A program made the translations under genes and the position numbers. A stretch of 63,763 bases of DNA, filler included, from Folioceros fuciformis (lineage: Eukaryota): assembly GCA_049999805.1 (NCBI GenBank). It is 3 parts of 3 records of this genome, joined end to end, with 100 filler letters (N's around TTAATTAATTAA, not from the genome) between each part and the next. Parts side by side here need not be neighbours in the genome. Positions count along the whole stretch, not along the records: positions 17,121 to 32,669 come from JBNGIO010006267.1; positions 32,770 to 63,763 come from JBNGIO010006268.1; 1 more part is not named here. One strand, 5' to 3'. This document shows, piece by piece, positions 17,121 to 57,062 of the stretch (position 1 is its first letter; each line of letters begins with the position of its first letter). The notes below the pieces were generated by a model. It saw nothing but the letters and a program-made list of their open reading frames with translations, was not told the origin of the DNA and did no database searches.

Positions 17121-19110
17121 CCCCAACTATCTCATTCAGATTGAGTGTAGAAGGTTGACCACTTGCTGCTGCTGAGTAGGCATCACGCAAAGTGGCATTT
17201 TGGCTGGAAATAAACGATTGGTAGGATAAGGGCAGGCTAATCAGCAGCTGTGCTGTCATCTCCACTTCAATGATCTTGGTACCTAACGCAGCAAGTTGTG
17301 CTCGTAGGTGCCTCAACTTGGTGACATGAGCACCAACTGGTTCCCCCTCCCTCAACCTCAAACTGTGAAAGTCGTTTCTTGCGTTGATCATAGTACATAT
17401 GTTTCTAACCTGATAAGTGTCATGAAGTTGTTTCCACACAGCTTCTACTGACTCAAGCAAATCAACCTCAGTGACTGTAGTCTCATCCAGGCCTGACAAG
17501 AGGATGGCAAATGCAACCTTGTTGCACTTCTTCCACTTTGCCTTGTCATCAGGCGTGGGCTGAACTGCAGCTATAGCTGGTACAAGGAAAGGATTGGCTA
17601 TAGTGCCATCAACATACTCCAGAACGTTGCGAGCATCAAGGTTAGCTCTCATACGTGCTTTCCAGCTTTAAAAACGTAGTGCTTTTCCATCAAACCTATC
17701 TTTTTCCTTAAACTCACCGTAATATGATGATCCTACAGATATGGACAAGGGTCCTTGACCTGTAGTCATGTTGACACCAACATAAGGTGGAGGAAGTGAT
17801 GGATTTGAGAAGAGCCAGGAGAGTTGATCAGGATCACTATCAGAATCAATGTCTGCGACAAACAGGGACATACTCTACTATATGCTCAGAAACCAGAACG
17901 GGCGCCATATGAGACATGAAATGGTAAGTTCTAAAACTTAAATGCCCCCTTCAAGTTTTTTTTTTTTTTTTTTTTTAAGTGAATAACGTTTCAACAAACC
18001 CTAAGCATGTCACATGACATCTAACTGGTAACCGTTTGTGCCTGCAGACATTCTCAGAATGCAAGGGACGCGACCCAAGCATCAATCAGGAAGACAGCAA
18101 GGACATCTCCAACACCTGGACACTCCAACCAATAGGCGTAGTCTTCAGTGGCGCCTGTTGAGAGCTTCCAAGGCAGCGTGTTGTAAATTCACAAGTTGTC
18201 TCGCACCCCTTCAAATCTGAGGGGTCATCGATGGCTAATCCTCAGCGCAAGCTCCATCTCTCATGGGAACAAGAGATTCCAGGTACAGCGCTGTGACTGG
18301 TTGCACTACAGAGGTAGGAGCAAGTGATTGTTGAACTCTGAATTGAGCAAGCTGAGTAACAAGTTCTGCAACTTCAGATTGCAGGGACTCCACACTTCTG
18401 ATAACTTCACCAAGTCTTGGAATTGTGAAGGCAAAGGTGTGATCAGCAAATGATTCAATACTGTTCAACTTGAGGATGAGTCGGTCAGTTGCATGAGGAC
18501 ATGCTGTCAGATCTTGTTGCTCAAGTAATGCCGCATCTTTATGAACTTCTCCTAACCAATTTTCTCGTTCAATCCTTGATTGCAGAAGCTCAAGGCGCCT
18601 GGAAACCACTCGACTGGAATAGCTGTGGGGAGAGGCAGAAGATTCTCTCACCTTGTCCTTCTTCCTGGCATCTGAGATCAGATCATTGTGTAGTCTACGA
18701 ATGTAGTCAGCCCTGGCAGCCTAAGGAGATGAAGAGATAGGCCAATTACGCCTACCACTCCTTCTAGGCATTTTAAGCACAAGAACAAAAGTCTGATATG
18801 TCTATCATCTAAGATGGCTAGGGCACCAGAATAGACACACTAGACCAAACATGTTTGCAATCACATTGCAAACAACATGAGTAACAATACAGCGGAAGTC
18901 TCAGAGCATCGAGAGCTCTGATACCATGTTATTTTATGCATTTGTTCAAGGTTTACTTAGACAAAGAACACTTGAAGCAATGCAGCAAAAGAACTTAATT
19001 AAATTTATACAAAATTGTAGCTTTTATAGTGTCAAGTTGTTAAACCCAAAAGGCATGTGTTTACCCGAGTTAGGTTAACTTAACCCATGGTTATCTAAAT
19101 AACCTTAACA
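17121..19110 (-). mobile_element. Ty1/Copia element A, 5' part (LTR 18927-19110, PBS, ORF0, gag), cut by the gap
   Basis: 184-bp TG..CA LTR; PBS TGGTATCAGAGC (tRNA-iMet) at 18915-18926. gag 17871-17121 (EFKEKDRFDG..WKARMRA..LRLREGEPVGAHV..LLISLP) has one in-frame TAA at 17668-17670. Confidence 0.9.
18235..18771 (-). pseudogene. ORF0 of Copia A (accessory ORF upstream of gag), one in-frame TAG
   Basis: MPRRSGRRNW..SP*AARADYIRRL..VVSRRLELLQSRIERE..coiled-coil; TAG at 18721-18723. Confidence 0.55.
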
Positions 19111-19519
19111 CCCTACCCCTCCTCTCGTAAGTAGGTTCCCTACCATTCCCACCCATTGTCGTAGGTAGACAGCCTACCCCATTGCCGTAGTGGGGTGTCT
19201 ACCATATAAGTACCTTCCCTACCTACGTAGGTTTCTTCCATTTTCTCCACATAATACTCTCTCTACGTACGTAGGTAGACATCCTACTATGTAGGTATCT
19301 TCTTATTTTAACCTACCGAAATAGAACTAAAAAACTCCATAAAACCCGTTACCGGAATAAAACTAAAAAACTCCATAAAACCCGTCACCAGCCACTCACT
19401 ACCTACCATGGGCACTTGCCCAAAAACCTACCTTCCATATGCCTCCCTTCGAACTATTTTGACAAAAAAGAAACAAAGTTAGACTTTCTTAGACCCGATT
19501 ACCAAACTTTTCCGTTCCA

Positions 19520-28290: not shown

Positions 28291-29679
28291 TCATACCATG
28301 TAGATGACAACAAAGCAAGGGAGCACAGCCTTGGCATTGAAGACGAGGAGATCCCCCATGTTGGAGTAGGGGCCGACATCCGAGGCCACAGAATCGTATC
28401 CGGCAGGAGGGGAAGAGTGAGCATCAAGGGCGAGGGAGTCGGGGCCGGCAGCAGCCGTGTGCACTCTCCCAGCAATGACTCTGCACACCACCATGGCGCG
28501 CCGGGCCTTGCACACATCGTCGTCGTCGAACCCTGGCCAGTAGGCGATGGAGTCGTGAGCCTTGCCGCTGGTGGAGGTGGTCTGGATGCCTTTCCCCTCG
28601 TCCCTGTGCGAGGAGAAGCCCTGCCGGATGATCTGACACACGCTGCAGGAGGGCAGGAAGCAGAGGCTGGTGGAGCCGCTGTAGCCCAGGGAGCACATGA
28701 CGGTGGTGCCGTAGAATCGCAGGAGCTCGTTCCCGTCCGCCATGCACCGCGGATGCTTCTTTGGGAGCTTGTTGGCCCGCGCCTTCACCGCGTCCCGGAA
28801 CTCCTCGAACTTGGCGATGGTCCTCTGCGTGTTGTGCACCTTGAGGATGCGCTCGATCTTCCCGCACGGGATCTCCTTCTTTAGCCAGCTCGTCCTGAAG
28901 ATGATCTCCACCACGTTCCGCGACGAGTCGCCCGGATGGAGCTCCGTCACTGCACAATCGCACACGCACATTGCATTGGCATTGCATCTTCAGGAAAAGA
29001 GAAGCAAGCGCACTCCAATTACCCCATACAACTGTGGCCCGAGGCAAAGAGCAACTGGAAGCACTAATTTGGTACCAGCGTGGCGGATGATCTGGTGCTG
29101 CTCCAGCGCTTCCACCCGGTTGAAGAGCTGCCCACATTTCTGGCACCCGGGCTTGGGGGAGTCGCACGCCACGCCCGCCTCCCGCTCCAGCGCCTCGTAC
29201 CCCTGCCCCAGAGTGCAGTCGTAGCAGCCCGAGAATCTCCGCAGCGGCGTCCCCCTGCTCACGTAGCTGGAAGAGATAGGCGTCCCGCAGTAGGAGCTGA
29301 TGCCTTTTTCCCTCAGCAGTCCCCGCTCCCCGACCACGTCGTTGTCCACGCTGTCGAAGAATTCGCTCACGCTGTCCCGCGACACCGGGCTGCACGACGA
29401 GCTCTGCTTGTGCATCACCCTGGTGTTGCCGTGAATCACATCCTTGAGCGACCTGGCGCAGGCTCCCGAGCCAGGAGCCTTCCTGTCCACTTTTTCCCTC
29501 TCCCGCTCCCGCTCCCGGTCCCGCTCCCGGTCCTTCCCTTCCCTCTCCCGGTCCTTCCTTTCCCTCCCCCCTTTCTTTCCATTCTTGGATTTCCCACTTC
29601 CCGCCCGCGGCTCATGCACCTGCTCCAAGTCCGTCTTGCAAGACAGCGTCTTCTTCCATGTCTGCCATGGCGCCGGCAT
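28291..29679 (-). CDS. Plant C2H2 zinc-finger plus PARP/ADP-ribosyltransferase-like domain protein (420 aa, 2 exons)
   Basis: Exons 29679-29076 and 28949-28291 (GT-AG). WQTWKKTLSCK, LKDVIHGNTRV, CQKCGQLFNRVEALEQHQIIRHA|VTEL, KKHPRCMADGNELLRF, TTSTSGKAHD, VCRVIAGRV, LPCFVVIY. Confidence 0.9.
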
Positions 29680-30967
29680 CTCGTTCCCCCCTCCCGCTGC
29701 TCTCTCCCTTCCCTTCCTACGGTCCTTCCCTTGCCCTCCTCACCTACCACGCCCTCGCCCTCCCGACCTCCTTTCCCCGGAATTCCCCTCTCATCCTCCC
29801 CATTCCGCCCCTGCAATTGCAGCCGGCCGGGAATGCGTTACCGCGCGTCCGAATTGCAACCAGCGGATTCGTTTGCTGCTGGCGGGGGGCAAGCCACATG
29901 CTTTCCGCGTACGACAAGCGGGAGCGAGAGACCGCGAGAGCAGAGTCCTGAAGCCAAGCAGGACACGGGGGAGGCAGCCAAGCGCGCAGTGTAACAGAAA
30001 CAGAATGCGGGAGGAGCCGGACAGCAGCAGGGCAGACACCGACACAAGGGAAGGTGACCTGCTGGGAGGCGCAGGAAATGGAAACTCCTAGAACCGGATT
30101 GCTCGCAGACTGCAAGGACCGGCCTTCTCCTTCTCCTTCTCTTCTTCTCCTCTTCTCCTCTTCTCCTCGTCCTCCTAGGACTGACTGACTCGCTTCACCG
30201 AGCGATGAGAGAGACGAGACCAGGCATAGCCAGAGTCTCTCACGAGAGAGCCCGGCAGGAAGAAAGAGAGAGAGGGCAAGGCCGCTGTCAGACCACATGA
30301 GGCTTGTTTAATAACAATGCATTATTTACCATATCCTAAATATCTCCGAAAATCGCACGGCGTACCCGGCTAAGCACGCCCCTCTTCCTGCCTCCCTTTT
30401 CCCACGGTCCGACCGCGAGCCGCACAGCTCGCGTTTCCACACCCAGCCTCGACACGTCAAATTTGTATCTCGGCAAACGCAGCGCAGTCGTGAACTTGAC
30501 TCCAGGTCCCGTCAGGTCGGGCCCGCGTTGCATCTGGCTTGGTAAAAACCCGTTTTGGAACGGGTTATTATGTATGGGGCAAGTCGCCATGCCGACCAGA
30601 CCGTTTGAAAGGCTCGAGCCGATGACGCACGCTGGGACCCGGTTGTTGCGACTTGGCACATGGTTACTGTTTACACGACGCAGTACCTCATGTCATACGG
30701 TCTACAGTTGGCTTGGAGGCGACTCCGTCAGGTGGGGAGCCGCCCGTTCCATGCGGCCGTTTTTGTGGGTCCCGTTGAGCTGGGCTGGGCTGGGCTCGGC
30801 TTGCCTTGCCTTGCCTTGGGTTGGCTTGCCTTGGCTTGGCTGCGTCTCTAAATCTAATGCCAAATTCAAAAATGAGCTATATTTGAACGAAAAGAAGTCT
30901 CGACTGTACATGAATACCTTATGTTGCAACCGTACGTACGGTGTATCCATGCCAAATGTACTCAACA

Positions 30968-39585: not shown

Positions 39586-41248
39586 TTCGCAGAGCACCAT
39601 CTAACTGTCAGCCGCGTAAAGGCTCGGCTGTGACTGCCTGCCACCACCATGCTGACCCCTTACCTCGGCCAGGGGTTTGTACAGGCTAGCGAAGTAGCGT
39701 CTGTGTCCACTGGGCTTCCGGAACTAGCTGCACAAGCCCAATCGGTCATTTACTTGTACACTGCAGGGATGGCAACTTGGTGATGCCCAATGCTGGTAGT
39801 TGTGGGTGAGACACGGCATTGGAGTCGAGCTCGTGGTGCCCAAAGTTGTTTTCTGAAAAACTTCCCTAGTTGCCATATCACAAATCCGTGGCCATTTTTA
39901 TAGGATTCGAAGCAAGCCAGAGAAGCACAGTGTGCATCACCAGGCTAGGTATCAACCCCTGCTATAGGTCGCATGTAAGGCGTCTGGCCGACGTATGTAG
40001 AAATTATGTACCAAATGGGTAGGTCTGCGGATAGTAAGATTCCCTTATAAGCTGGTGCAGAAGGGATCACACCTACGACGTGATATGAAGAGATAGAAAG
40101 CGGTAGAGAAAACATAACCGAGAGCAAGGAAACTGGAAAAGAGTACTTTCCTACGCTTGCACTTTTCTAATGGCCATCTTCGAGTTTCCCTACGTAGCCA
40201 ATCCAAACTCGGAGTTTTCTCAAAAATTGTTTGTTGCAGAGAGTGACAGCAAGGGTCGTCCTCTTGAGAACTATCGCAATCAAGTGAGCATCCTGCTCTG
40301 AGTCATGCATCATGGAAAACCGTTTCCATATCCAGGCAAGGAGCAAACAGCTGACCAGGCTTACCAGCGACACTGAGGAGAGACCCGGAATCACGAGCGA
40401 GCACCCACCGAACGATAGGCGAACAACCCGGGAAATGCATTCCCGTGTCGCTGGGATAAGGAGAATCCGGAACGGCCATTTGCGAAGTCCTGGGTGGTAG
40501 GACACATCGACGGTAATCAACTTTGGCAGCCGGAAGATGATGTCCGCTTAAACTTGTACCCAAAAGCATGCATTCAAAACCAGAAAGCTGGTGGAAAGCC
40601 GTGATCGCTGGATACGCCTAGAAGAACATGCGGCATAATAACCAGTTGCAGAGGAAATAAGAAACCAGAGTCTTGTGCAATCATCGTTGCACCAGATTAA
40701 ATGACGACATGGAATGCTCCAGCCCACACTCGCCCCTAATGAGGAATCTTATGCACGTTTTTCTACACTATAAACCGAAGGGAATAGGGTGTAAAGGGAG
40801 CAGGATGCAAGCCAGGGAATAGGATGTACACTGAAGGGAGTACGATGTGCACTAAAAGGAGTAGGGACGGGGTTCCATGTAGAGAGGAATCCCATCTGTA
40901 TCCTCCCATTTTCAATTCCCGACTGAGGGAGGGCAACTACACGTCCACAAGGAGGTTGAAGCAGTTCGGGGCAGGAAAGGCGACGGTGGGCACACTCCAG
41001 TTCCGAAGCAGGGAAAGCAATTCCATGAATAAACACAGCTTCACCCAGACACGCTTGTGGGCAAACAGAAAACGACGAGGCTAAGTACGAACCCGAGCAA
41101 AAACAATTAATTTCGCCCTCAATCTCGGGCTTCGATCTAACTTACACTCAGAACTCCCACGAAAACCGCACCCAACAGCCGAGGAGATACGGCGAGCAGG
41201 TGCGGGAGTGGGAGAAACTATTCTGGGAAAATTGAGGTCACATGGTCA

Positions 41249-42110
41249 TCAGTGACTTTTAACGTACTCCTGTACTACGTTCAACCCCTCAGTCTCTTCG
41301 CCGTAATCCTGAAAGAAATGGCGGAAAACCAGCCTGTTAGTTCTACAATTCCAGAGCTGCGATGTGCGCCACATTTCTAGATGCTGGAAAACTTTGTGGT
41401 GTTATAATTCAGAGCCCCCATTAGACGAATAAGAAGAGCCCGCACCTTAATCACGACACATGAGCAGCCAACCACCTTCCGCGCTTTCCCTTCGGAATCG
41501 ATCTTGCAAAGCTGCAAAACAAGAAAAAGAAAACCCTGAACCGACTCAGCTGGAGACACATAATAACAGTCATCTACAAACTCAAGTCATTTAGGAGATG
41601 CCACGCTTCCATATCACTCCACGCACCCCTGCCCATTCTCCGAGTTTCTTGGCACTTGGTACCGAGATGAGACTGACGCTGTGCTCACTGCAGAGGGCTC
41701 GAACCAGTTTGGAGTAGTCAGGCTGATCGCAGTCGGCGGCCAGTACACAAAGCTGCGCCGCATGCTTTTCGATGGCTTTGGCTGCCTCGTGCAAACCACG
41801 AGCTAGGCCATCATGCGCCAGCGATTTCTTCAATACCAGCTGAAGACCAGTTAGAAGGTCCATCGGCTCCCCGAGCGTCGGGCCTGAGGAAGCTGCCTGG
41901 TCGGCCAGAACATCTCCGGCCGCTTCTGGCTCCCTGCTCGCAACAAACAGCGCACATGGCGACACCACAGAATCGCTCAGATCAAACCCGTTCTTAGTTC
42001 AGCAGCGACGCCAGGCTCTTCCACATCATTCTTCTGCAAACAACCAAGACGAGGAAACACAGCAAAAACTGAAATTCTGGCAGGGCAGATTGCACATACC
42101 CGTCAGACAT
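41249..42110 (-). CDS. RPS12: 40S ribosomal protein eS12, 4 coding exons
   Basis: Exons 42110-42100, 41933-41627, 41511-41446, 41308-41249. [60 protein letters not shown]. Confidence 0.97.
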
Positions 42111-42199
42111 GATGGCGAAATATTGTAGTACACAAACGTCGGCAAAGATGCCACCACCTGAGCCCTTCGAAGTCGCTCGACGGCAGATATGACAGAGAG

Positions 42200-42450
42200 A
42201 TCGAATGGATTACCACTCTGGATATATGAATCTAGGGCTCCCAAAACCCTAGTATTCATACGGAGCGTGAGGGCCTCAAAACTTAGAAACCCTAAAGTTT
42301 CTACACTCGACTTCGTAATATCAGCGCTGAATTCCATCTATAGAAGTCTCGCCGCGAAAGGCAATGTCCCAGGTGTTTCTACATTCGTAAGCTGGGATAT
42401 GTGTAATCGGGCTTTTGTCTGTCGAGGAGTGCCTGTGCTCTAGAGGTCGG
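42200..42450. promoter_or_regulatory. Putative bidirectional promoter with telo-boxes
   Basis: AAACCCTAG at 42244 and AAACCCTAA at 42287, between the divergent RPS12 and SURF6 ATGs about 345 bp apart. Confidence 0.6.
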
Positions 42451-42454
42451 CGCT

Positions 42455-44363
42455 ATGGCGGTCTCTACCGAGGAATTGGCGGATGTTGTGCATCAGCATA
42501 CAGTGTGTAAGATCCTCATGCGTCTTGGACAGGGTGATTGATGTGGTGCGTTGTCAGGTCTGTGGTGGTTGCTGACATTTTGTTGGCTATGGCAATGCAC
42601 CAGTTTTCAACAACCTAGTGGACATGATACCAGCCAAATTCTACATTCCATCCACGTCCGAAGGGCAGCAGGTGGGTGTGCTATCAGTGCGGTGCATGCG
42701 TGTCTTGGTTGCGCTGCCGATTAGCTGACGAACGTGCTGGTGCAAGCAGACGTACGGTTTGAGCAAAAAAGCCCGTGAAGCGAGAAGAAAACAAACGAAG
42801 CAGAATTTGAAGCTGGCAAAACGAAAGAAGGTGTACTTTTGCAGCTGTTTGCTGCCATTGCTCGTATGAGCCTGCATGGCGAGAGGTGATGGTGTCTGGC
42901 TCATGGGTGTTTGGCTGTGTTTTACAGCTTGACCCAGAAAAATTTGTTAGCACGTCGCAGCAGCTGCTGGTGGAGCAGGAAAGTGGTGAGGGGGAAGAGG
43001 AGCCGCCTGTTTTGAAGAAAAAAGGTTAGTAAGGTTTGTTGGCGGTTTCTACGTTCTTGCTGTAATTTGGTGACGGGCTGTTTTGTGACTTGGTTATGGG
43101 TTTGCAGACGTGAACAGAGCAGTTACTCGAGAGCAGCTTCTTGAACGGCTTCACAAGCGGCTTGAAACTCTACGTGCTCAGCATGCCGTTGATACTGCTA
43201 AGAAGGCTAAAACATGGCAAACTGAGCAGAGGAAAGAAAGCAGAAAAAGGAAACGTGCATCTGTCCCAGCTGATAACGTTGGATCCGGTACTCGTCCTGC
43301 TGGAGGCGCCCCTGTTAAGGTCAAGCCAGTAAGTGAAGGGCCGGGTCCAGTCTCCACTGAAGGTTTGCTTCGTAGGGAGTTCCTGACGTGAGCGAGCACA
43401 CATTGGGCTAACCAATCCACGTGTGGTCTTTTGTGTTGTAGATTGAAGCCCAGCCTGTAAATATGGAGTTTGGTCGAGTAAAGATGGGCCTGGATTCTAC
43501 AGCTTTCCAGCTGCAAAAGAAAAGACCAAAAGTGTCAAAAGAAGAGCTGCTTGTTAAGGTTGATGTGACACCAAGACCAAGTTTGAGGAGCTCTTGTTGA
43601 TGTGCCTGGTACTGAGCTTTGCCTTTTTATCTGCAGGCTACTGCTCTGCAAAAGGAGATGCAAGATCCAACAAAGGGACAGGTAATAGACGTTTCGATCA
43701 TATGGTGTACCTGGTGACCTGTGTGATGGGAAGTAGCTCTGACTATAGCAGTTGAAGTTGGCGTGTAGGTGGTGGCCAGTAAGCATGCGTGGAGTGCTTC
43801 TGTGACTCGCGCCGCAGGAGATAAGGTGTGTGACTGATTGGCATGAATGTTTCTGTAGGATGTGTCCAGGAGTGGGTCTGATTGTGCGATTTGTCTGGTG
43901 CAGGTGCTCGATGATCCAATTCTTCTAAAGCGAAGTTTGAAGAAGGAGAAACAGCAACGGCAGAAGAGTGTTCAGAAATGGTTTGTACAGTCAAGAAAGT
44001 GTAGCACTGCTTGTGTTGTTCGAGTAGGGGAGTGCACCGAGCTCATGAACAGTGAGCTAAAGACTTCGAATGTCTTCGATTCGTCTGATGTGTTGCAGGC
44101 AAGACAGGAAGGATACCGAGAGGAAAAACTCTCAGGAAAAGCAACAGAAAAGGCAGGAACATATTTCGCAGCGCATTGAGGGTAAAAAAGCGCGTCAGAT
44201 AGCCAAGGTAAGTCCGTCATGTTGTCTACAGACGGTGGCTGTGCATCTATTCGGTGGGCTTGAAAGCTGACCAGTGTTGCTATCCGCCTGATGTCCGTAG
44301 AGGGAGAAAAAACTTTTGAGACCCGGATTTGAGGGACGAAAGGAGGGCTTTATAAACCCTTGA
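42455..44363 (+). CDS. SURF6/RRP14 ribosome-biogenesis protein, multi-exon
   Basis: N-terminal H..FFNNLVDMIPAKFY; LAKRKK|LDPE; REQLLERLHKRLETLR; AW..RAAG.KV|LDDPILLKRSLKKEKQQRQKS..KW; C-terminal REKKLLRPGFEGRKEGFINP*. Confidence 0.9.
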
Positions 44364-46118
44364 GCGTTCCAGCGGTGGAAAGCTGAAACTCATCACCTTT
44401 CTAATTGAAAGCAGAGTCTGAAGGTAACAGTCTGCTGCCATCATGCGATGTCTCTGGATTCAACTCAGGAAAAATTTAACGCCGTGATTTTCTGTTACTT
44501 TAGGTGGGACATGGCGTTGTGGGGCTGCAGCCGCGAGATAAAGTTACCTTGCTCCTGCGGTTTGATACCTCGCACATGCGCCGCAACCGAGAAAAAACAA
44601 AAAAATCTTGGACGCTTCGCCCAGTTTGTATTCTACCATTCTAGTTCGGAACGGCGCTTGTTTCCTGGAAACTGATCAACAATTCCAAGATACGCTTAAG
44701 TGACATGCCGTCCTTAAGCTTGCCAAGGTCGTCCCCTTCGTTTCCGGATGCACAATGTACTAAGATGATGTTGAAAAGCGGTATTGACATGGTTCTCGTC
44801 TTCTTCAACAGGTTTATTGTTTGTTCTTGCACGTTGACTAGGCACCTGAAGTGTGAGTGCGGAACAATGCGCCTTTCTCATGGTGAAAAGTAGAAAAAGT
44901 GAAAGCTAAATTTATAGCTGGCCTCACGAGGTGTGTATGCTTGATGCTGTGTTGGGAAACAAGTCGTGTGTCCTTGGCATAAACTCCGAGGATCGATGAA
45001 GTTGTAATAGCCACTACTATTTTGAGATGAGTGGCAGTTTAAAATGCTATGGATAAAATCTTGAATATAAAAGGCTAGGTCTATGGATAAAATCTTGAAT
45101 ATAAAAGGCTAGTCCTAAGGCCTTTTTTTCCTCGTGAAAAAGAGAGTTAGATAAAACAGGTAGAATTCTGCTTGGAAAGTACATGAATTGAGTCGAGGTC
45201 CTATTGATAGTCATAGCACGTGAAAACAAAGGCTTGATAAGAGCACTAACCGTCCTACATCCTAATTACCTTCGCTTCATGGCCCAGCCATGGAAACCAG
45301 CCATGACATAGTTCTTCCTCTTAAAACCAGCCATGACCTAGTTCTTCCTCTTAAATTTGCGAGGAGAGGAGGCTTTGAGATTTTCTGCCGCGATTAGCAC
45401 CTGTTCCCAAATGCACCACGCTACTGCCTTGGTGGAAAGCAAGGCCCTCTCGCCGTATACGATTGCTGTCCAGTTATTCCATATGCCGAAAATGCAAGAG
45501 CTCCACACCAATCCCCACCATTAATTCGACACCAATGGGTGATTGGAAGCTAGATCTAGCCCGAAGAGGGCAGATTGTTCAGTTAGAATCGGATTGGCCA
45601 AAGGAAAGTGTTCAGTTAGAATCGGATTGGCCAAAGGAAAGAGCCCTTGTAGCCAGCCCTCCACCTCTCATCAGACCTCGCGAGCAAACTTGCAATGGAA
45701 GAATAATAAAATCTATACTACGGATCATACAACTTAAGTGCGGAGGCATTGGGAAAGTAGGCAAGACAAGATGTAAGAGATCATCAGCATAAAAGAGAAT
45801 TAATTAAGAAGGGTAGAGCATTGTGCTATATGCCCAAAAACGTAAGCGGTTATTAAACCGTCATAACTAAAATATAAAACTAACTATTTAACCTAGGGTA
45901 GAAGTCTTAACTTTACTCTAGGTTTTCTATACTCCCACTTAGTTTAGTATTTTAGGAGTACGAAATGGGCATTAAACTGAATGCATGTTTTTGTGTGAGT
46001 CATTATCAGTTTATGAACTCTTGCTAAACGTGAAGATAGTCTCATGCTTGTCAATCAATGTCCAACAACTCCTTACGCTCCATTGCCTTGCTCTCCACAG
46101 ATCACCATAAAAGCAACA

Positions 46119-46895
46119 ATGGCTACACTAAGTGCCACAAAACTCTTGTTGCTTGTGGTGATGTCTTCATCTTTGGTGCTTTTTGTCATTGGAGATCTTC
46201 AGTCGTTCAGTCGAGTTGCACACACTCTAGGATTTCGTGGCTTGAGATGGAAGACTCTATTCAAGGTCTCGAGTGTCTGGGTTGTGATCGCTTGCGGATA
46301 CCAGTCTGCCAAACGTCAGTCTTGTCTTCATGCAATGAACTGTCTGGACTCCAACATCGTGTCCTTTGAGTCTCCAACTGGTGCTCCTCTTCCTACAGAT
46401 AGCTCAAAAGGCAAGACTGCAAGGAGAATTCACAACTTTGACAACAAGGGAAATCCTAAACATGTGTTTGCTACTGCCTCAGTAGACTTTGAAAAAGTTG
46501 CTTGTAAGGAGACAGAGATGCAGTGCAAGCAAGCTTGTGTGATGGACATTGGTATAGACCCAAGCATGGAAGAATTCTTACGCTTCACAAAGGTACCTCT
46601 CCCTATGACTCTGAAGATGAGAAGTACATGGAGAAAGAGTAGGGACGGAAGCCTATGAAGAATCCCACAAAGAAGAAGGGTGAGGTAGTAAAGCCTAAGT
46701 CTCATACCACTGAGACTGGTCTATTGGTCACTTATAGATGTAAGTACCTAAACTCTATTTGGTGATATATTGCTCATATTCTAACTCTGATACTGCTGTA
46801 CAGCACTCACAGAAGAGTTTGCCAAATCCAACAAGACTCGAGAAGAGCTAATCAAACTTCTGAACAAGGATGGCAAGCTCCCACACAAGGATTAG
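46119..46895 (+). pseudogene. Antisense, apparently spliced membrane-protein gene inside Copia B
   Basis: AACAATGGC start; hydrophobic LLLLVVMSSSLVLFVIG; candidate introns 45995-46100 (5' UTR) and 46740-46803; frameshift and TAG near 46600-46642. Confidence 0.5.
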
Positions 46896-49572
46896 TCAAT
46901 GAGCAGTCCCCTTTGTAACAACAGGAGGAATTAGGCAAATACCAGCAGCTGATGTATGTTTTTCATGAGCTAGTTTAGATAAAGCCTTCGTGAGAAGGTC
47001 TGAAACATTGTCCTCAATTGGGACATAGGATACTGTTACATCTCCATTCTCTGCTGCATGTTATATAAAGTGATGACTTATCTCAATATACTTTGATCAG
47101 GCATGAAAAACAGGATTCTTCATAAGTGGTATAGCAGACTGATTATCACACCAAACAGGAGTTGGTCCAAGCTGTTGTAGGCGTACTCCCTTAAGAAAAC
47201 TTCAAATCCAAGTAATCTCCTTAGATGCTTGTGTCATAGCTGCATGCTCAGCTTCAGTTGAGGAGAGACTGACTGTAGGTATCTTCTTACTAGACCATGA
47301 CACTACAGAAGTGCCCATAAAAATACAATTAGCAGCTACACTTCGCCTTGTGTCAAGATCTCTTGCCCAGTCGGCATCACAGTATGCTGTGAGATCCAAA
47401 CCTTCCTTGCATTTCCGAAATCGTAGACCCTTCTTAGCAGTCCCCTTCAAATAATGGAATATGCGTTTTACAGCTGTCCCGTGTACGGGTCTAGGGTTCC
47501 CTAGGAATTGACTAACAACTCCCACCGCCCTGGTAATGTCCATCCTAGTCCAGCTAGATAAGTAAATAAGGGATCCCATAGCCTGCCTATAAGGGGTTCC
47601 AGACATAGCTTGTTTCTCTTCTAGGGTAACTCGACACTGTTCCAAGGACAGTTTCTCACCTACTGTCATAGGTGTAGAGACTGGTTTAGCATCTAACATA
47701 TTGAAACGCTCAAGTAGCTAATGAACAAAATGTTCCTGATGTATGTCAATTGTACCATCTACCCTATTGAAATGAAACTGAACACCTGAGGAAAAAGTGA
47801 GTTCCCCTAGATCAGCCATCTGCTCGGCTAAGATCCTTGTCCTTAAATGGCAAACTATGTGCCTTACTAAGTTGTCAGGCCTCACAAAAGGAAGTTGGGT
47901 CAAAAGTAAAATCAAGGGGTTCTCTGTATGTCTCACCTTTGACAAGAGTGGCTAATCGTTGGAAATTGACATGACCTAAACGACAATGCCATAGTTGGGT
48001 GAAAGGTGTACCGGTAATATGTGCATAGGGTCTGTTTGTAGAAAGAGTAGACACATCTAGTAAATAAAGATCATGGAAAGAATTTCCTTTGAAGAGGATC
48101 TGACCTGACCTTGAGACAATACAACCTTGTTGATCAAAGCACACTTGACAGTTGTGGTCTTGTATAAGCTTCATAATAGACATTAAGTTTTTGGTCATCA
48201 AAGGCACATAAAGGACATCAATAAGGATAAGTTGAGAAGAGTTTGGCAGGAGCATTGTTACTGAATTAGTTCCCTTGATGGAAAGTCCACTATCATCACC
48301 AAGTAAGACAAACTGTTTAGAATCATTGGCTGGAATGAAACTAGAGAAAGCAATCTTGTCAAAACAAATATAACTGGTGGCACCAGAACCTAAAAACCAA
48401 GAGGTAGGTTGAGTTTTAATAGTTGACAAACAGACCGCCATAATAGTTGGCTGCTTAGCCTTACTCACTGTGAGATTGCTTTCTTCTGGAGAAATGTTGC
48501 GTCGAGGCTCTCCTTGTTTATTCTTACGGCAATCACGTTTGTAGTGTCCAAGAATCTTACACCAATTGCACACAAAAGTTTTCTTGGTGATATTGGTGTT
48601 GAGCCGTTGAGGTTGTGTTGGAAAACCACGACCTCGTCCTCTGAAACCGCCTTGTCCTTTGGAGGAATAAAGTACTCTTGCACCACTATTTGAAATTGAA
48701 GATCGAGACTTATGAAAATTGCGTGAGCGTTCCTCAACCAGTATTGCTCCTATAACCTCTTCAAGTGTGACTGTAGGTAACTGACCTACTGCAGCTGCCT
48801 TAACTGCAATGTGTATCGTGGCATTCTGGCTACCAATAAAGTTGCTGTAGCTCTCAGGTAAAGAGGCAGGGAGGCTTATTGCTGATTGCACCTCTGTAAG
48901 TACAATGCCACAATACACTAGATCGCTCTATGCATCCTGTAATTGTTGATGTAGGCCTCCATATGCTCATTTTCCTTCATCCTCAAATTAAAGAAATCCC
49001 TGTATGCATGGACAAGAGATGCAAAGCTCTTGTCCTGATAAATGGACTCAAAAACCTTCCACACATTATTAGAAGTCTTGGCTCCAATGGTGTGGGGCAT
49101 CATGGTTTGATCTAAGGCAGCAATGAGTATAGATCGGGCACGCCTATCCTTTCGCTCCCAAGCTAGGATTTCGTCTGCCGATCTCGCAGGTACTGTGACC
49201 TTTGGTTTTGATCCATCTAGTATGGAAAATAGCTCATTCTCCTCAAAGATCTGAGTGAGTCTCATGTCCCAGATTTGATAGTCCGTTCCATTGAACCTAT
49301 CTTTATCTCAAAAATCTATTTTCAAAGGGACCAAGGCTGATGCTGGGACTGCAGGCGTTTGCGCTGCCATGCTTGATGAGTTGAAGATGGACTGAAGGAC
49401 TGACTGAAGTTGAAATTGTCTTGCTCTCTCTAAAAGATTGGAAGGAGAGAAATCCCATATTGGGTATGAGAAAGAATCAGCAAACAAGAAGGAGATGTCA
49501 TAAACATCATCATCATCTTCATGATCAGGTGCTTGCATAGAAGATAAGCAAGTCACAACATAGTGGAGGACT

Positions 49573-50022
49573 TTAAGCCAAAAGGAGAATGTCTGAGGAA
49601 AGATAATTTTCACATAAAATGTTCCATGAAAGAATTCCCTCGCAGAGCTTCTCGATGAGATCACTTGACTCCACACGTTTTCTCAAGCTGATGAGTTGAC
49701 GTGAAATGACAAGTTGTGTGTCTTTCTTTCGATGGAGAGTCGTGTCCTTCATAATATCGTAGCTTCCCCTGCCGTGATGATGTAACGTCGTATCCGACTT
49801 GTGAGGATGAGAATCGCAGCAACCGTCAGAGGAAGAAATTGATATTCTATCCCGATTTCTTCTGGGTGGATGAACGTCCCTTCGTGTCAACAGAGACTTT
49901 CGTCTGACTGATTGTGGGACGGTGTGCTCCTCGAATCTGCAATCAATATAGGATAAAGGAAATGAGTCTCTTTGTCTGTTGATTATCTTGGGAAACGGTG
50001 CTATGAATCTGCGCCTATGCAT
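49573..50022 (-). CDS. ORF0 of Copia B (149 aa, between PBS and gag)
   Basis: MHRRR.., R/S-rich, then VISRQLISLRKRVE, similar to element A ORF0. Confidence 0.5.
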   Translation of the reverse strand: MHRRRFIAPFPKIINRQRDSFPLSYIDCRFEEHTVPQSVRRKSLLTRRDVHPPRRNRDRISISSSDGCCDSHPHKSDTTLHHHGRGSYDIMKDTTLHRKKDTQLVISRQLISLRKRVESSDLIEKLCEGILSWNILCENYLSSDILLLA

Positions 50023-50969
50023 CTTGAAGCTTAGATGCCAGAATGCTCCACATCCAACGCACTTGATGAAGCAAGCTTTAATACCATAATAAAATCTATA
50101 CTACGGATCATACAACACAAGTGCGAGGCATTGGCAAAGTAGGCAAGACAAGATGCAAGAGATCATTAGCATAAAAGAGAATTAATTAAGAAGAGCAGAG
50201 CATTGTGCTATATACCCAAAAATGTAAGCGGTTATTAAACCATCATAACTAAAATACAAAACTAACTATTTAACCTAGAGTAGAAGTCTTAACTTTACTC
50301 AAGATTTTCTATAAAGAACATATGTTGGCTTTTGTGGAGGACCCCATTGCTGCATAGTCTACACACATCCTCCCCCGCCGCTACTAACAAACCATCCCAT
50401 CAGTCGCCATTAGACAAGCAAGCTTAAAAAAGGCACCAAACCATGACTTTGACCTTGGGGGGAATTCCAATAGCCGACCAAAGGAGATGGAGAGCTTCTT
50501 TTTGGCGCCGGACTAACAAGCTCCATTGAGAGCCCATCGATCGGCATTGCCTAGCTTTCTACGAGTGAACGAGCCAATGATAGATATCTGTCATTAGAAA
50601 GTTAAACAAGGACCGAGAGCTCCCTTGTTGGCCACCTAGCCGCTTCAGCCAACGCAAGAGGTCAGGTCACAAGGTCAGTTGCCAATTCTCCCCCAGATAG
50701 AGCCAATGCTGGGACGGAGGCTTGTTAGGATTTTGTAGAGCGGAGCTAGAGAAATCTCATAGTTGGCAAAAAGATAATTAATTACTCAGCAAAAAATTGT
50801 TTTTTAAATACAAGTGTAAATGACTCTTCATATATTGACGCTTCAAATTAGGGTTTACTAATAAACCAAGACTTAAATCTAAGCTACGTGGTTACCTATA
50901 CCAGGGATGGTATGCTAACACACCCCCTTAACCACGAGGCGACACGGTAACTGCGACAGTCCCAGAAGC

Positions 50970-51278
50970 ATGACGAGTTCGCTCCTGTTGATACTGGCAA
51001 GCTGCGCACTCGGGATCGCCATATTCCTCCTCGGACAGCATGTGCAGAAGGAGCTGCGAAGAGCTGCGCGCAGAATGCAAGCAAAGAGAGTATCATATGC
51101 GCACTGGAGAAAACACGACGCAGAACTGGAGATGACTCTGGCGGGATGGTAAATCAAGCTGTCGATAGCTGTGAGCATCGACCCAGAAGCTGGCCATACT
51201 CCATCAAGACGATTGAGAAGGCGCGAGCTGGTGATGAATAAGCTGGCAACGGCAGCGAAGATTCCATTGCCAGAGTAG
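50970..51278 (+). pseudogene. Antisense TM ORF of Copia C (102 codons, one in-frame TAA)
   Basis: MTSSLLLILASCALGIAIFLLG..ELEMTLAGW*IKLSIAVS..RRRELVMNKLATAAKI; resembles the element D antisense ORF on both sides of the stop. Confidence 0.6.
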
Positions 51279-51362
51279 CATCAGGAGCCGTGATTGGATG
51301 AGGGCGCTGAAGATTCATCCACGGACAGCTGATGCTCATCTTGGCGAGGTAGCTGTAAATCC

Positions 51363-54300
51363 CTAACCCGCCAGAGGAAGGATAGCCTGATAGTCTGTAA
51401 GGCCCATCTCTGCAAGAAAAAGGCTGTGCTTGATGCGAGGCAGCGCCTTTGTGAGTAGATCAGCTAGATTCTGATCTGTAGGGATATAAGCAATGTTGAC
51501 GATCTTCCTTTCAACAGAGTGGCGCACAAAATGGTGCTGAATCTCAATATGTTTCGTACGGGCGTGAAAACGAGGGTTCCCCACCAAGGCAATCGTCGAA
51601 CGATTGTCACAGAATACAGTAGTCGGCCGAACCTGAGGGAATTTGAGGCAAGCAAGGAAACTCCGTGCCCACTCTGCCTCCTTGGTAGCATCGGTAAGTG
51701 CCTTATACTCGGCTTCGGTCGAGGAAAGGGCAACTGAAACTTGCTTTTTAGTGCTCCAATTGACAATTGCCCCAGCAAGGGAGAAACAATATGCAGATAA
51801 GCTCCGACGAGTCTCAGGGTCCGAGGCCCAATCTGCGTCGGCATAAGCTTGCAACACAAAATCTGTATCAGGTGAATCACCACGGTAACAGAGTCCATAT
51901 GTTGATGTGCCCTTTAAGTATCTCAATATACGTTTGACCGCTCCCCAGTGATCCTTCCTAGGATTTTCGAGAAACTGAGAGACACAGCTCACAGCGTGCT
52001 GGATATCAAGTCGAGTCCAGCATGCTATGTAATTTAAGCAACCGACTGCATGTCGGTACGGTATATCAGCCATGTCCTGAGATTCCTCATCTGTCTTGGG
52101 AGACTGATCACAGGTAAGTCTCAAACCTACCACACCAGGTGTGCTTACAGGTTTCGCTTCGAACAAATTAAAACGTCTAAGAGTTTCATGCACATATTTG
52201 GTCTGATGCAGGATAAGGGTCTTGTGGTCACGATCCCGAAGCAGTTGAACTCCGAGAACAAAGGTAAGGACTCCGATATCCTTCATGTCATACTGTTTAT
52301 GTAGCATCTGCTTGACCCAGTCCAGAAGTTCCCGATCATCAGAGGCTAAGATGGCGTCATCCACATATAAAGCCAAAATAACCAAGTGTCCATTTTTGGA
52401 ATACATGTAGACATTAGAATCAGTGGGGTTTTGAACAAAACCGATCGACTTCAGGTAAGCATCGATTGTTTTATACCATTCACGAGCACTTTGTTTTAAA
52501 CCGTAAATGGTCTTCTTAAGTCTGCAGACCCAGGTTGGGTGAACAGGATCCACAAAACCTTCAGGTTGCTCCATGAAAATGTCTTCCTCTAATTCACCAT
52601 AGAGGAATGCAGTGGAAACATCCATCTGCTCAAGATCCCAGTCACGAGCAGCAGCTAAGGCAAGAATCATACGGATGGATTGTGTCTTGACTACAGGACT
52701 AAAGGTGTCGGTGTAATCCACACCAGCAACTTGTGAGAAACCACGTGCGACGAGCCTGGACTTATATCTGGCAATCTGGCCTTTGGCGTTTAATTTATGC
52801 TTAAACACCCATTTACAGCTGATAGCCTTGCGTCCAGCAGGTAAGGGGCAAAGTTCCCAAGTATCATTCTTGATGAGAGAATCATACTCGTCCTGTATAG
52901 AAGGTATCCACTTATTCTTATCTCGGCCTAATATTGCTTCTTGATAAGATCTGGGTTCTGTAGGGTGCTCCGTTGAAGAGGAGAAAACTGTAGGGAAGTG
53001 AGAAACCAACCGCGAGGATCTAGGGTTTCGAAAATCAATGGCCTCATATGGTTTTTCATGCCACTGATCCCTAGGGTTTCGAGTGCGACTAGGGTACCGT
53101 CGCTCTTCAGGAGCTGAGGGCTCATAATTTTGTACTGCAGGTTGAACAAGAGTTGGGTGTAATGCTTCATCATCATCAGAGGAGGCATCTACATCAGAAA
53201 TAACATTTTCCAAGCTATCCAGCTGATCAGCATCATGATCATGAGGTTCAGGGTGTGTTGCTTGAGGTTCTGTCTCTGCATAAGGTTCAGGCGGTTCAGG
53301 CTCAGCATCTTCTAACGGCATGTCAGAAACAGGAGACGGTGGCTGAGCAGGAACTGGTAAATCAGCCCCAGAATCAGGTGGAGTGCCACCCCCTGAACAT
53401 GAACCGTTATGAGTTCCACACCCTGAACCGTGAGCAGCACCACCTGAAGCAGGGAGCATATAGAAATCTTGAGGAAATTCAGAGACAGCAGTGTCGAAGT
53501 CATCAAAAGGATGCTCAGGGGATGCGGCAGCATCAGCAGATTGGTGAGTAGCTGGATAGGTAAGCTCCTTAAAGGTAACACTGCGGGCAAACGAGCAGCT
53601 GCGAGAAGAAGGGTCATAAAGTTTGTAGGCTTTAGTTTCTTCGCCATAACCGATAAAAATAAGAGGCCGAGCACGATCCTCTAACTTTTTACGTTGCTTG
53701 GCAGGAACATAAGCATAGGCCGGGGAGCCAAAGACACGAAGATGAAGGAGGCTTGGCCGACGGTGCCAAACTAACTCAAAAGGTGTCCTTCCCGCAACAG
53801 AACTGGTAAGCAACCGATTTAGTATGTAAGTAGCAGTGACCACGGCTTCAGCCCAGTAAGCCTTGTGAAGACCCAACCACTGTAGCATGCTGTGGGTCAT
53901 GCCTAAAAGAGTCTGATTGCGTCGTTCAGATACGCCGTTTTGTTGCTGTGTATAAGGGACAGCAAGCTGGCGTAATATGCCTTGATCAGCCAAATATTGA
54001 TCAAAAGCAGGGTTTACAAATTCGGATCCATTGTCGGACCGCAAGCACCGAAGTAACCGACCAGTCTGTCTTTGAACCATGGTAAGCCATTCTTGGAAAA
54101 CTCCAAAGGTGTCTGATTTCCGCTTGAGAGGGTATGTCCAACTATACCTACTATAATCGTCTGTGAGAGTAAGGTAATAATTGGAACCGCCAAGAGAAGA
54201 AACATGTATCTTACCTGAAATGTCTATATGCACCAGGTCAAGAACATTAGAGGTTCTAAAAGCGACAGTGGTTGGAAAAGGCAGTTCCTTTTGTTTGGCA

Positions 54301-56387
54301 ATAACACAAGAATCGCATAAGGGAAGATCCTTAAAGCACTTGGACAAAGGCTCCCAGTAACAGTCTGTATTTGACATTATGATCAGGTTGTTTTTATTAG
54401 CATGACCTAGGCGTGCATGCCAATGTTGTGCTAAAGCTGATTGAGTTTGTGAGGCCACAAAGGTACTTCAGGCTGGTGAGCAGCTTATATCCAGCTGATA
54501 CAAGTCATCCACCAAGATACCCTTGGCGATAGGAGCAAGTTGATCTTTATATTTAAGGAGGCAGCAATCAGCTGCAAAGGTGAGATCAAACCTGCGGGAT
54601 TTCATCAGCTGACTGACTGATAAAAGATGCTTTGCCATATTAGGAACATAAAGAACATGTTCCAGCTGCAAGGCAGAGCCATCCTTAAGGCGGAAAGTAC
54701 ATGTGCTTGAACCGAGAATCTTTAGTCCTGTACGGGTAATCTCATCACCAAGTAAAACCTTTTCTGTGGTATGGGCAGGAACATAATTGCTAAGTAATTT
54801 CCTGTTGTGGCAAATGTGCGAAGTCGCGCCAGAATCCAAATACCAGGAGTCAGGCTCACATGCAGAGATATGGTGACTCACTGTCATAACAACGGGCTGC
54901 TTGCCAGAAGATGATGCTTGGTGAGACCGGTCTTTGGAAACCGTATGTGCCTCAGCCACCTTATGTGACTTCTCGGCCTTTTTCGGTTCTCCATTCTTTT
55001 TCTTCTTACATTCCCGTTCCCAGTGTCCTTGAATTCCACACCAATTACATGAACCAGCTCTCTTTCCTTGAACTGGCTTGACAACGCCACTTCCTGGAAG
55101 TGTGTTCTTTGCCTTGCCCTGAAACTTACTCTTGTTTGAGTACAGTACTTTATCAATTTTCGTCTTGCGTGTAGTAGAGTGATGAACTTTGCTTTGCTCT
55201 TCTTGGAGTAAAGCTCCAACTACATCTGTAAAGGAGATGTTGGGCGCTAAGCCTAATGCTGCTGCATGCTGAGCAGCATTTAGGATAGCACCATAACTGG
55301 AGACGAAAGTTGGATAACTTGGTGGGAGGCTGCTGAGGAGCTGTGCAACTGCGTTAACGTCATCAAGCTGTGTGCCTAGAGAGATCAGCTGTGATCTCAA
55401 GAGCCGAAACTTGGCAACGAAGGTACCAACTTTCTCACCTTCCTTCATACGTAGGGAGAATAATTCGGTACGTACAGTGCACAGCGTGTGAATATTTCTG
55501 ACATCGTAAATTTGTGCCAGTTGCTTCCAGATGTCCTCTGCCTTAAGCAGGTAGGCTACGTCTGGAACAAGAGCCTCATCTAATCCACTGATGAGTAGGG
55601 CACGCGCAACGCTGTTGGCGTTCGCCCATCTGTCCTTCTCATCCTGTGTGGCATTAGGTGGAGGTTCTGCATACTGTCCTGTAACAACCAACCAAACGTG
55701 TCTGGCTTCCAGGGCCGCGCGCATCCGGACACTCCAAACTGGGTATTTGGTGCCATTAAACCTGTCACGTTCCTTGAATTCAATAGTGTTAGTAGGCTGA
55801 TAAAGATGTGGTTGTGCAGCGTGCGGACCAGGTACAGATGGGTTTGAAGGAGGAACTGGTGGCCCTGGAGGATTCGGAGGTGGTGTGGGGTTTAAAGGAG
55901 GAGGAGGTGGAATTGGTGGGGCTTGTGCGAAACCACCTAACCCACCATACCCACCATAATTCCCTCCGAAACCCGTGTACCAGTTTGGGATTCCGAGACC
56001 TCCAGGTGCGGTATAAATCCCAGCCAAAGGATTCGGGAAGAGCCCACCGCTGCCAACAGAAGGAGTCGTGAAGAATCCTGGTACTGTCATGCCGCTAGGA
56101 TTGTGGGCGATTCCACCAGCCGCTGCGGAGACACCTCCCGATGCAGCAACTCTGCCAGGTAAGGCGGCTTCGCCTGAGACACCCCTCCTGGGTGTTGAGG
56201 TTCCCTGTGTCTGAGTTGCGACCCCAGCAGAATGTGCGCCGGAACCAATTGCTGGTGAATTGCTGTGACTCGTGCTGGGTGCAGTGCTTGCATTGACACC
56301 CGTTTGGGCCGCAGAGGATGCGAAGCCATCTGCGTCGCCAGAGTCACCTTCATCACCGGAGCCGAACTGGATTCTGCCATCACTCAT
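51363..56387 (-). CDS. Gag-Pol polyprotein of Copia C, interrupted by a single in-frame TGA (54468-54470)
   Basis: CNWCGIQGHWEREC, WYLDSGAT, WHARLGH, DDE integrase (LRSDNGSEF, QQNGVSERRN), RT (MDVSTAFL, LYVDD), RNase H (YADADWA, TKHIE). The two listed ORFs share one frame: ..SPA*STFVASQ.. Confidence 0.95.
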
Positions 56388-56633
56388 TCTGCTGTACAGT
56401 ATCGCGAACTGGAACTGTAGACCTGCAGGTGAAAATCACGCACCACGAGACCTTGCGGTTACAGGTATGAACCAGTTAGGTTCCACACCCGCGTGCCGAT
56501 TGGAATTGTTGAGTGTCTTCCACGCTGTAAGTTGCAAGTCTGTCGATTTGATCGATCGCGTCGCTTCAAATCTCACATTCCTTGTAATGGCATCTTGCGA
56601 TTGATGCAGAGATGCGCGCGTGGGCAAGACGAA

Positions 56634-57062
56634 TCAGAGAAATGCAGATCTTCTCCGACGTCTTCGAGTGGCCTTTCGATTCATCAATGTCTCGCGAAAT
56701 GCTAGGCTGACGGCTTCGTCCAAATCAGTTTCTGATTGTAAAACACTTGGATCGTTTCCCACAAGAAGATCCTCCAGCAGAGAGTAAATTCTCTCACACC
56801 TGTCAATCACATTGCGTAGTTGAATCTGTCGAGGAGGCCTCTGCGAACGAGAGCTCTCTGCCTACGAGGATCTCCGCTGGGTAAAATCCTGATCACAATC
56901 AGACGATTGTCTGCAATTCCGAGAGTGATTTGAAGCCGTTTTCAAGCAAGGTCTGACTATCCTGAAACTGTCTGCAACTGGGCTTCGTTCCCAACACGCG
57001 TTGGTCGCAGGTCTGACATTTCTTGAAAACCGGGCGCTACTCTCAAAATCACGACAAGGCAT
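56634..57062 (-). pseudogene. ORF0 of Copia C, one in-frame TAG
   Basis: MPCRDF..RRSS*AESSRSQRPPRQIQLRNVIDRCERIYSLLEDLL..RKATRRRRRRSAFL*. Confidence 0.45.

Follow-up and report, generated by a model that had tools for sequence, protein, structure and literature searches.

Three Ty1/copia retrotransposons, A, B and C, in a window of 63,763 nt from Folioceros fuciformis (assembly GCA_049999805.1; three joined parts, to which all coordinates refer) contain an additional sense open reading frame (ORF), ORF0, between gag and the primer-binding site (PBS). Judged from its openness and its pattern of substitutions, ORF0 is very probably a protein-coding gene. It marks a clade of Copia elements with short long terminal repeats (LTRs), of which A, B and C are decayed members. 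The ORFs are located on the minus strand at 18771-18235 (A), 50022-49573 (B) and 57062-56634 (C), between PBSs of the tRNA-Met type (18926, 50086 and 57484) and gag, as had been reported in a preliminary description of this DNA. The N-terminal residues and helices quoted there, as well as the RRRRRR tail of C, were found as written, and the proposal that a 5′ extra ORF marks a short-LTR Copia clade is borne out by openness controls, omega values (dN/dS), indels and a tree.

Openness and selection of ORF0

A tRNA-Met PBS pattern yields 982 matches across the genome. For analysis, 100 genome regions were picked by a PBS or gag Pfam match, independent of likeness to A, B or C; 70 of these hold both a PBS and gag, comprising 48 gag families. 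Elements sampled elsewhere in the genome are designated by L-numbers (L031, L097 and so on). Six Tork-like elements, five with leaders shorter than 300 nt and three with a leader of 300–449 nt or Ns were left out, resulting in a test set of 56 long-leader non-Tork elements. A sense ORF of at least 100 aa, starting with ATG, is present in 34 of the 56 leaders, against 3 in antisense and 4.6 in shuffles; for ORFs of at least 140 aa the numbers are 22, 0 and 0.7. When each gag family is represented by a single member, a sense ORF of 100 aa or more is found in 23 of 42 leaders, compared with 3 in antisense and 2.9 in shuffles. In a set of 76 long leaders, the longest ATG-ORF reaches at least 140 aa in 27 cases in sense, in one case in antisense and in 1.3 cases in dinucleotide shuffles.

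Selection was assessed for pairs of DNA-aligned ORF0s using the GY94 codon model with transition bias, and pooled omega values were obtained on a grid. The omega value is 0.15–0.65 in 11 of the 13 ORF0 pairs, with p<0.05 in 8 of the 13. Pooling of eight independent family pairs gives an omega of ∼0.5 (2dlnL of 91 versus omega 1), whereas the shifted frames of the pooled pairs give 1.25 and 1.5; the corresponding values for the gag core are 0.02–0.17. To judge from these ratios, ORF0 is under moderate purifying selection and evolves much faster than gag. The indels of family A relative to a reference copy point in the same direction, being multiples of three in 25 of 28 cases in ORF0 versus 12 of 76 in the spacer that follows, many of them shared by descent and hence not independent.

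The B family and one C pair speak against this interpretation. B and L031 show an omega of 1.05, and the C copy of the window and L097 one of 0.94 (0.72 in a protein-guided alignment). Among the B pairs, values of 1.05, 0.62, 0.71 and 0.85 are not significant, and only that of 0.40 is (50 codons, p 0.026). Three further relatives of B have a recognisable ORF0, one of which is open (152 aa, 25% identical).

In the preliminary description, A and C each required readthrough of a TAG codon. The TAG codons in A and C are attributable to copy-specific decay, because sister copies have sense codons at these places: at codon 17 of A in all six other A copies that cover it, and at codon 67 of C in its near-identical sister (n=1). 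Programmed readthrough was rejected on these grounds. Sisters of A and C carry stops of their own at other places, and ORF0 is wholly open in three close A sisters and four C relatives. Up to the end stated previously (18237-18235), this copy of A comprises 178 codons plus stop, but that stop is a premature TAG as well; the frame of sister copies continues for another eight codons, to 18213-18211, resulting in 186 codons. That ORF0 is an artefact of a GC-rich, stop-poor leader, or needs programmed TAG readthrough, could be argued from the TAGs in A and C and from the capacity of CG-rich DNA to yield Arg-rich starts, but this explanation is exceedingly improbable and already refuted by the controls: the antisense and shuffle comparisons, the frame-specific omega, the triplet indels, the sense codons of the sisters and the finding that, among decayed copies of gag, the most frequent stop is again TAG.

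Elements A, B and C

The features of the three elements are as follows.

18927..19110 (−): A 5′ LTR, 184 nt, TG...CA ends, matching the LTR pairs of sister copies
18915..18926 (−): A PBS, tRNA-Met type
18773..18808 (−): A upstream ORF (uORF) of 11 codons, separated from the ORF0 ATG by 1 nt; the two A subfamilies do not differ in its length
18211..18771 (−): A ORF0, 186 codons in the family; two TAGs, at codons 17 and 179, interrupt the window copy
17065..17871 (−): A gag with an acidic N-terminus and a single stop, cut by the N gap
50087..50313 (−): B 5′ LTR, TA...TA ends, target-site duplication (TSD) TTCTT; 14 mismatches in 227 nt with the 3′ LTR
50075..50086 (−): B PBS, tRNA-Met type, two mismatches
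49573..50022 (−): B ORF0, 149 codons, open; relatives L031, L209, L210 and L212, dN/dS 0.40–1.05, mostly not significant
46900..49538 (−; lower end approximate): B gag-pol, broken; integrase core and front of reverse transcriptase (RT) deleted
46017..46658 (+): B antisense ORF, 204 aa from its Met, one segment resembling a transmembrane (TM) segment
45704..45931 (−): B 3′ LTR
57485..57682 (−): C 5′ LTR, 198 nt, TG...CA ends, TSD AGCCT; one mismatch with the 3′ LTR
57473..57484 (−): C PBS, tRNA-Met type
57315..57400 (−): first copy of the stem-loop in the C leader
57141..57226 (−): second copy of the stem-loop in the C leader; in 7 units from 5 elements it is conserved through compensatory changes
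57049..57090 (−): C uORF of 13 codons, overlapping the ORF0 ATG; present too in L097 and L098
56634..57062 (−): C ORF0, 142 codons; window copy broken by TAG at codon 67; dN/dS 0.57 between open relatives
51363..56387 (−): C gag-pol, gag-protease-integrase-RT(-RNaseH), one internal TGA at 54470-54468
50970..51152 (+): C antisense ORF of 60 aa, with a TM segment at the N-terminus and a basic tail
50723..50920 (−): C 3′ LTR

C is a nearly whole, young Copia element, and B is older than C, as follows from the mismatches between the LTRs (14 in 227 nt versus 1). Only the 5′ part of A is present in the window, consisting of the 5′ LTR, the leader and the start of gag, up to an N gap at 17021-17064; full-length A sisters of 6.7 kb occur elsewhere in the genome. 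Between the A subfamilies the dN/dS of ORF0 is 0.59. The distance from the PBS to the gag ATG is 1055 nt in A, 548 nt in B (to the first gag-frame Met) and 1097 nt in C. The domain order is that of Ty1/copia, as observed by Pfam in C and by tblastn in the A sisters and B. An LTR pair, PBS, polypurine tract and 5-bp TSD are present in B, C and the A sisters, the A copy of the window lacking its 3′ half. At least one copy of the C family has both ORF0 (142 aa) and gag-pol (1643 aa) open.

Some further observations concern these elements and their relatives. The LTR ends of B are TA instead of TG...CA; directly before the PBS, TA is found in 16 of 86 elements and GA in 4 of 86. In A (17871-17800), B (49538-49450), C (56387-56340) and several relatives, gag opens with an acidic, Asp-rich extension before the conserved core, which is a possible partner for the basic ORF0 protein. 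One A-family copy (L090) has lost ∼670 nt of leader with most of ORF0, through a deletion whose ends are unlike splice sites.

Phylogeny of the ORF0-bearing elements

In a tree of RT-RNaseH sequences (49 rows), a single clade of 28 rows (bootstrap 99, SH-aLRT 97) unites B, C, the sisters of A, all other long-leader non-Tork elements and five Logan proteins; A itself was placed via a sister copy. The short-leader elements L137 and L169, the Tork-like group and L141 fall outside. Quick trees with more rows agree (SH-aLRT 98 and 94). The ORF0 clade consists of short-LTR Ty1/copia elements and comprises most of the Copia sampled in this seed-free plant genome, with ORF0 lengths ranging from ∼105 to 235 codons. 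None of the named references compared, whether from angiosperms or oomycetes, falls together with it. The tree references were 21–29 BLAST-nearest proteins without lineage labels.

The preliminary description had suggested a comparison of the three ORF0 proteins, and named a lack of significant similarity as an outcome that would speak against its proposal. No such similarity was found: in BLASTP the best E-value is 0.18 for A and B, with no match between A and C or between B and C, and hhalign assigns a probability of 0.1% to A versus C. The helices quoted for A and B are different structural segments. The gene is nevertheless evident from selection and the tree. More generally, 47 ORF0 proteins fall into 27 BLASTP groups, and the hidden Markov model (HMM) links above the best reversed control (E 0.0023) mainly join families of the RT subclade of A (E 2e-5 to 5e-4).

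The case for a single origin of ORF0 is based on its position and the tree, because the cross-group HMM matches among the 27 groups are confined to one RT subclade. L141, which is placed outside the clade, has a 410-nt leader with a basic, Cys-bearing ORF of 92 aa that could be an early-branching or an independent ORF0. Repeated independent origin of ORF0 is a possible alternative.

Predicted structure of the ORF0 proteins

Despite their divergence in sequence, the ORF0 proteins share a predicted build, with an Arg-rich N-terminus, often a CxxC or CxC motif, a C-terminal coiled coil and no TM segment. Among 24 families, Arg accounts for 20% of the first 30 residues vs 9%, a heptad run is significant (p<0.05) in 16, and a CxxC/CxC motif, at most one per protein, is present in 14, where 5.1 are expected. 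The maximal 19-residue hydropathy does not exceed 1.24. The Cys content is 2.7%, family A being nearly Cys-free. Heptad residues are conserved, and the best heptad run of the A protein comprises residues 123-150. The RRRRRR run is limited to C and its near-identical sister, relatives keeping a basic tail only.

In an AF2 model of the A protein (mean pLDDT 63.5), helices are predicted for residues 19-45, 54-90 and 95-153; a low-confidence model of the C-family protein (pLDDT 46) contains C-terminal helices 95-122 and 130-158. When three copies of residues 50-175 of the A protein were modelled together, a score of 0.56 was obtained, compared with 0.00 for the best of three controls. The modelled trimer is a parallel coil over residues 100-151, in which the runs share at least 55% of the contacts and the partner pLDDT is at least 55. 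In calibration, 21 of 30 microbial homo-pairs passed the mark used and none of 23 monomers did; for eukaryotes the numbers were 17 of 29 pairs and 0 of 30 monomers. The model supports self-association of the family A protein through its coil.

Searches for homologs of ORF0 gave none at E≤0.1 among 1878 candidates, and none at E≤0.001 when a nine-sequence profile was compared with 1.84 billion representatives. None of 32 ORF0 proteins reaches any Pfam cut-off, the only matches being weak ones to coiled coils. Foldseek returned a best E-value of 0.62 in BFVD and no match in the PDB. The Atlas search gave no usable match for family A, and for L202 only unnamed clusters at 0.90.

Leader structure

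The leaders are predicted to be folded, with a mean z of −3.5 before ORF0 (17 5′ untranslated regions, UTRs) and −2.6 in the spacer (16 spacers). The 5′ UTRs of several families are only about 45 nt long. In C, a stem-loop of 86 nt occurs twice; its pairing is retained in 180 of 203 cells at 62% identity, compared with 77–96 cells in slid controls, and 12 of its 29 pairs are changed on both sides. An Rfam search gave one sub-threshold A/T-rich match over a poly-A stretch, taken as chance. Separately, the leader of L166 (G000:C354:630-990) starts with eleven tandem 33-nt repeats, each with a PBS.

The ATG density of ORF0 is 3.0 per 100 codons, vs 5.8 in gag, and the ATG/CAT ratio is 0.58 vs 1.27. 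Contigs of run X1 contain the spliced host genes at 37900-45200 and leave ORF0 of B and C uncovered, which is neutral with respect to expression.

Proposed role of ORF0 and alternatives

We consider it about evenly balanced that ORF0 is an oligomeric, nucleic-acid-binding accessory protein which acts on the RNA of its own element. On this view, translation of the full-length RNA would reach ORF0 as its first long ORF, after a structured leader that contains short uORFs. Its product would oligomerise, and the Arg-rich arm may bind nucleic acid, namely the element's own RNA and probably the leader stem-loops. The protein could then steer this RNA between translation, export and packaging, with Gag-Pol reached by reinitiation, leaky scanning or internal entry, and not by a conserved splice. 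Such a role would be akin to that of accessory proteins which other reverse-transcribing elements encode and which are likewise small and basic, with a coiled coil.

A number of points weigh against this proposal. The trimer mark was passed by only one of seven eukaryotic pairs without an older solved relative; moreover, the trimer job used three copies and no alignment, unlike the calibration, and coiled coils may pass by likeness. The stem-loop was seen for family C and L117 only. A median of 13 ATGs lies upstream of gag (33 elements), the ORF0s of 25 families contain 133 internal ATGs, and relative to synonymous-codon shuffles the ATG ratio in ORF0 is 0.97, which is no depletion. Because of the 13 upstream ATGs, and because ORF0 is not AUG-free, plain leaky scanning is insufficient.

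The best-surviving alternative, possible though distinctly less probable than an even chance, is that ORF0 counteracts host silencing by binding RNA, either small or double-stranded, or the DNA or chromatin of the element, in the manner of the Virgaviridae proteins that combine a basic region, Cys residues and a coiled coil. Its three-part build is the same as that of hordeiviral gamma-b, as far as the latter is described in the available text of PMC12221039, and the Cys motif is enriched (14 vs 5.1 of 24). Its fast divergence (omega ∼0.5 vs 0.02–0.17 for gag, with no cross-family similarity) would fit an arms race. The clade is also very diverse (48 gag families among 70 sampled elements). 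In contrast, a CCCH pair and Cys richness are absent, no match was obtained in Pfam, BFVD or the PDB, and fast divergence is likewise reported for a Gypsy ORF0 without a known role in the accessible part of PMC3485330.

According to a second, improbable alternative, ORF0 is a long regulatory uORF that meters Gag-Pol output, its peptide sequence being of little weight. In its favour, the stops of uORFs cluster near the ORF0 start (within −10 to +25 of the ATG in 15 of 26 families vs 8.2 expected from shuffles, p about 0.02), in 9 of 25 families no more than 60 nt separate the ORF0 stop from the gag ATG, and omega, at 0.5 and close to 1 for the pairs of B, is high for a gene. However, the purifying selection on amino acids is significant, the heptad residues are conserved and the protein architecture is common to families without sequence similarity. 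A length of 140-235 codons is, moreover, long for reinitiation control.

An equally improbable alternative holds that ORF0 is intronic, with Gag-Pol produced from spliced RNA and ORF0 functioning as a Rev-like exporter of unspliced RNA. An Arg-rich motif combined with a Leu-rich helix would suit such an exporter, the conserved stem-loop could be its response element, and the many upstream ATGs need to be bypassed. Single strong acceptors do occur, such as one 35 nt before the gag ATG of C with a score of 12.4 (host range 5.2–17.2, from a splice matrix built on only 13 host introns). Across 33 elements, however, the 60 nt that precede the gag ATG yield acceptor scores no higher than those of three control windows (Wilcoxon p 0.61, 0.22 and 0.36), no consistent donor was found, and no precisely spliced copy is present among 34 matches.

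The antisense ORF

The preliminary description regarded an antisense ORF with a TM segment as a further trait of the lineage. A hydrophobic segment is indeed present in the antisense ORFs of B, C and some relatives (L098, L115, L205 and L147); in C, L098, L115 and L205 these ORFs are 53–86 aa long, are located between pol and the 3′ LTR, and have their TM segment at the N-terminus, followed by a basic tail. In family A (L087, L088 and L089), the same position is occupied by a conserved basic, helical antisense ORF of 124 aa without a TM segment; antisense ORFs of similar size occur in L139, L155, L188 and L203, and many elements have none in the stretch examined. The antisense TM ORF does not define the clade.

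Other features of the window

Identical copies of a 1942-nt repeat (100% identity) are found at 1-1942 and 15079-17020, the ends of one contig, adjoining the gap that cuts A; the repeat is likely an assembly artefact. Host genes are located at 28291-29739 (−) and at about 37900-45200, including a C2H2 zinc-finger family member, an AIR synthase-like gene and neighbours; introns of 78–222 nt are joined in the run X1 contigs, and one of the host genes is closest to liverwort proteins, with only 65% identity. An RNase_T exonuclease match is present at 13041-13700 (+), a LINE-type RT fragment related to 8676-9747 at 58867-59373 (−), and an older Copia pol at 60825-62720 (−).

Comparison with known systems

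In the accessible part of the REXdb survey (PMC6317226), Copia is held to be uniform in build, with the 3′ ORF of SIRE as the only lineage-wide extra gene. Extra ORFs (eORFs) are counted there only from 250 codons. Forward eORFs at the 5′ side are listed for the Gypsy lineages Tekay (33%), TatII (23%) and Ogre (21%), which qualifies the earlier statement that a 5′ extra ORF is typical of Ogre; 14 of the 16 Copia rows have no 5′ eORF, and the values for Bianca (5/2%) and Ikeros (4/6%) are those of an unassigned column. The available text of PMC7264820 treats 3′ ORFs. In the literature covered, mainly openly accessible papers and part of the REXdb supplements, no account of a 5′ ORF in a Copia lineage was found. 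The layout has so far been described for the Gypsy branch, and a Copia clade with a 5′ ORF0 appears new. At 105–235 codons, ORF0 is invisible to surveys that use the 250-codon cut-off.

The ORF0s of Tekay (Retrosat2, FRetro3 and RIRE3), TatII and Ogre resemble those described here in being sense ORFs between the 5′ LTR and gag-pol, without homologs and evolving faster than pol; for Retrosat2 a Ka of 0.26 vs 0.08 for pol is given in the accessible part of PMC3485330. These elements differ in that they are Gypsy elements with LTRs of more than 3 kb, whereas the Copia elements analysed here have LTRs of ∼200 nt and lengths of 6.7–7 kb. The Ty3/gypsy domain order of Ogre and Tekay is not that observed in C, and Pfam gave no plant mobile domain, Athila ORF1 or SMC-like match in 32 ORF0s. 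With the Copia lineages of REXdb (SIRE, Ale, Ivana, Tork, Lyco, Bryco, Gymco, Bianca and Ikeros) the ORF0-bearing elements have in common the domain order, the full tRNA-Met PBS and the 5-bp TSD. The PBS is of the 3′-end tRNA-Met type and not the half-tRNA-Met PBS of Bryco/Osser. The extra ORF of SIRE is 3′ and sense, unlike the 5′ ORF0, and the longest sense ORF between pol and the 3′ LTR does not exceed 110 aa in 40 elements.

That a whole clade possesses a 5′ accessory gene implies that accessory genes arose in Copia elements too, and that the genome RNA can have a first long ORF other than gag. Tentatively, and with somewhat less than even confidence, the clade may be viewed as a complex lineage of Copia elements from seed-free plants that dominates in this genome and combines a 5′ ORF0 (RNA regulator or silencing blocker) with a 3′ antisense ORF that is TM-anchored in some families. 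If so, these elements would possess two accessory genes, like a complex retrovirus, and with ORF0 a Copia element would for the first time be seen to encode a trans-acting RNA regulator or silencing suppressor. The dozens of natural variants of ORF0 could be used for testing whether retrotransposons encode RNA regulators or silencing suppressors. With a median of 13 AUGs lying upstream, the way in which Gag-Pol is translated becomes a question in itself.

LINE-1 ORF1p is likewise the product of the first ORF of a retroelement and forms a trimeric coiled coil. For one ORF0 the nearest named Atlas clusters are those of LINE-1 ORF1p (0.84–0.85), which is a lead only. ORF1p differs in its RRM and C-terminal domain, which are absent from the all-helical ORF0 models; no Transposase_22 match was obtained, and the elements have a Gag of their own.

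Hordeiviral gamma-b, as described in the available text of PMC12221039, is a protein of 15.8–20 kDa with a basic motif that binds RNA and a coiled coil on which suppression depends. ORF0 is comparable in size, in its basic and Cys motifs and in its C-terminal coiled coil, the self-interaction of the latter being predicted in the case of ORF0. The C1 and C2 clusters and the CCCH motif are absent from ORF0, and there is no sequence similarity, only the build being alike.

Finally, ORFs I and II of badnaviruses and tungroviruses are small ORFs ahead of a polyprotein, following a structured leader with short uORFs, the shunt leader of caulimovirids (PMC5902531, accessible part). They are internally AUG-free, whereas ORF0 has about half the ATG density of gag; ORF0 is, moreover, a single ORF without a sequence or fold match to them. 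In its arrangement of leader and ORF0, the Copia clade would resemble, without matching, the polycistronic translation driven by uORFs and RNA structure that is described for the Caulimoviridae in the same source.

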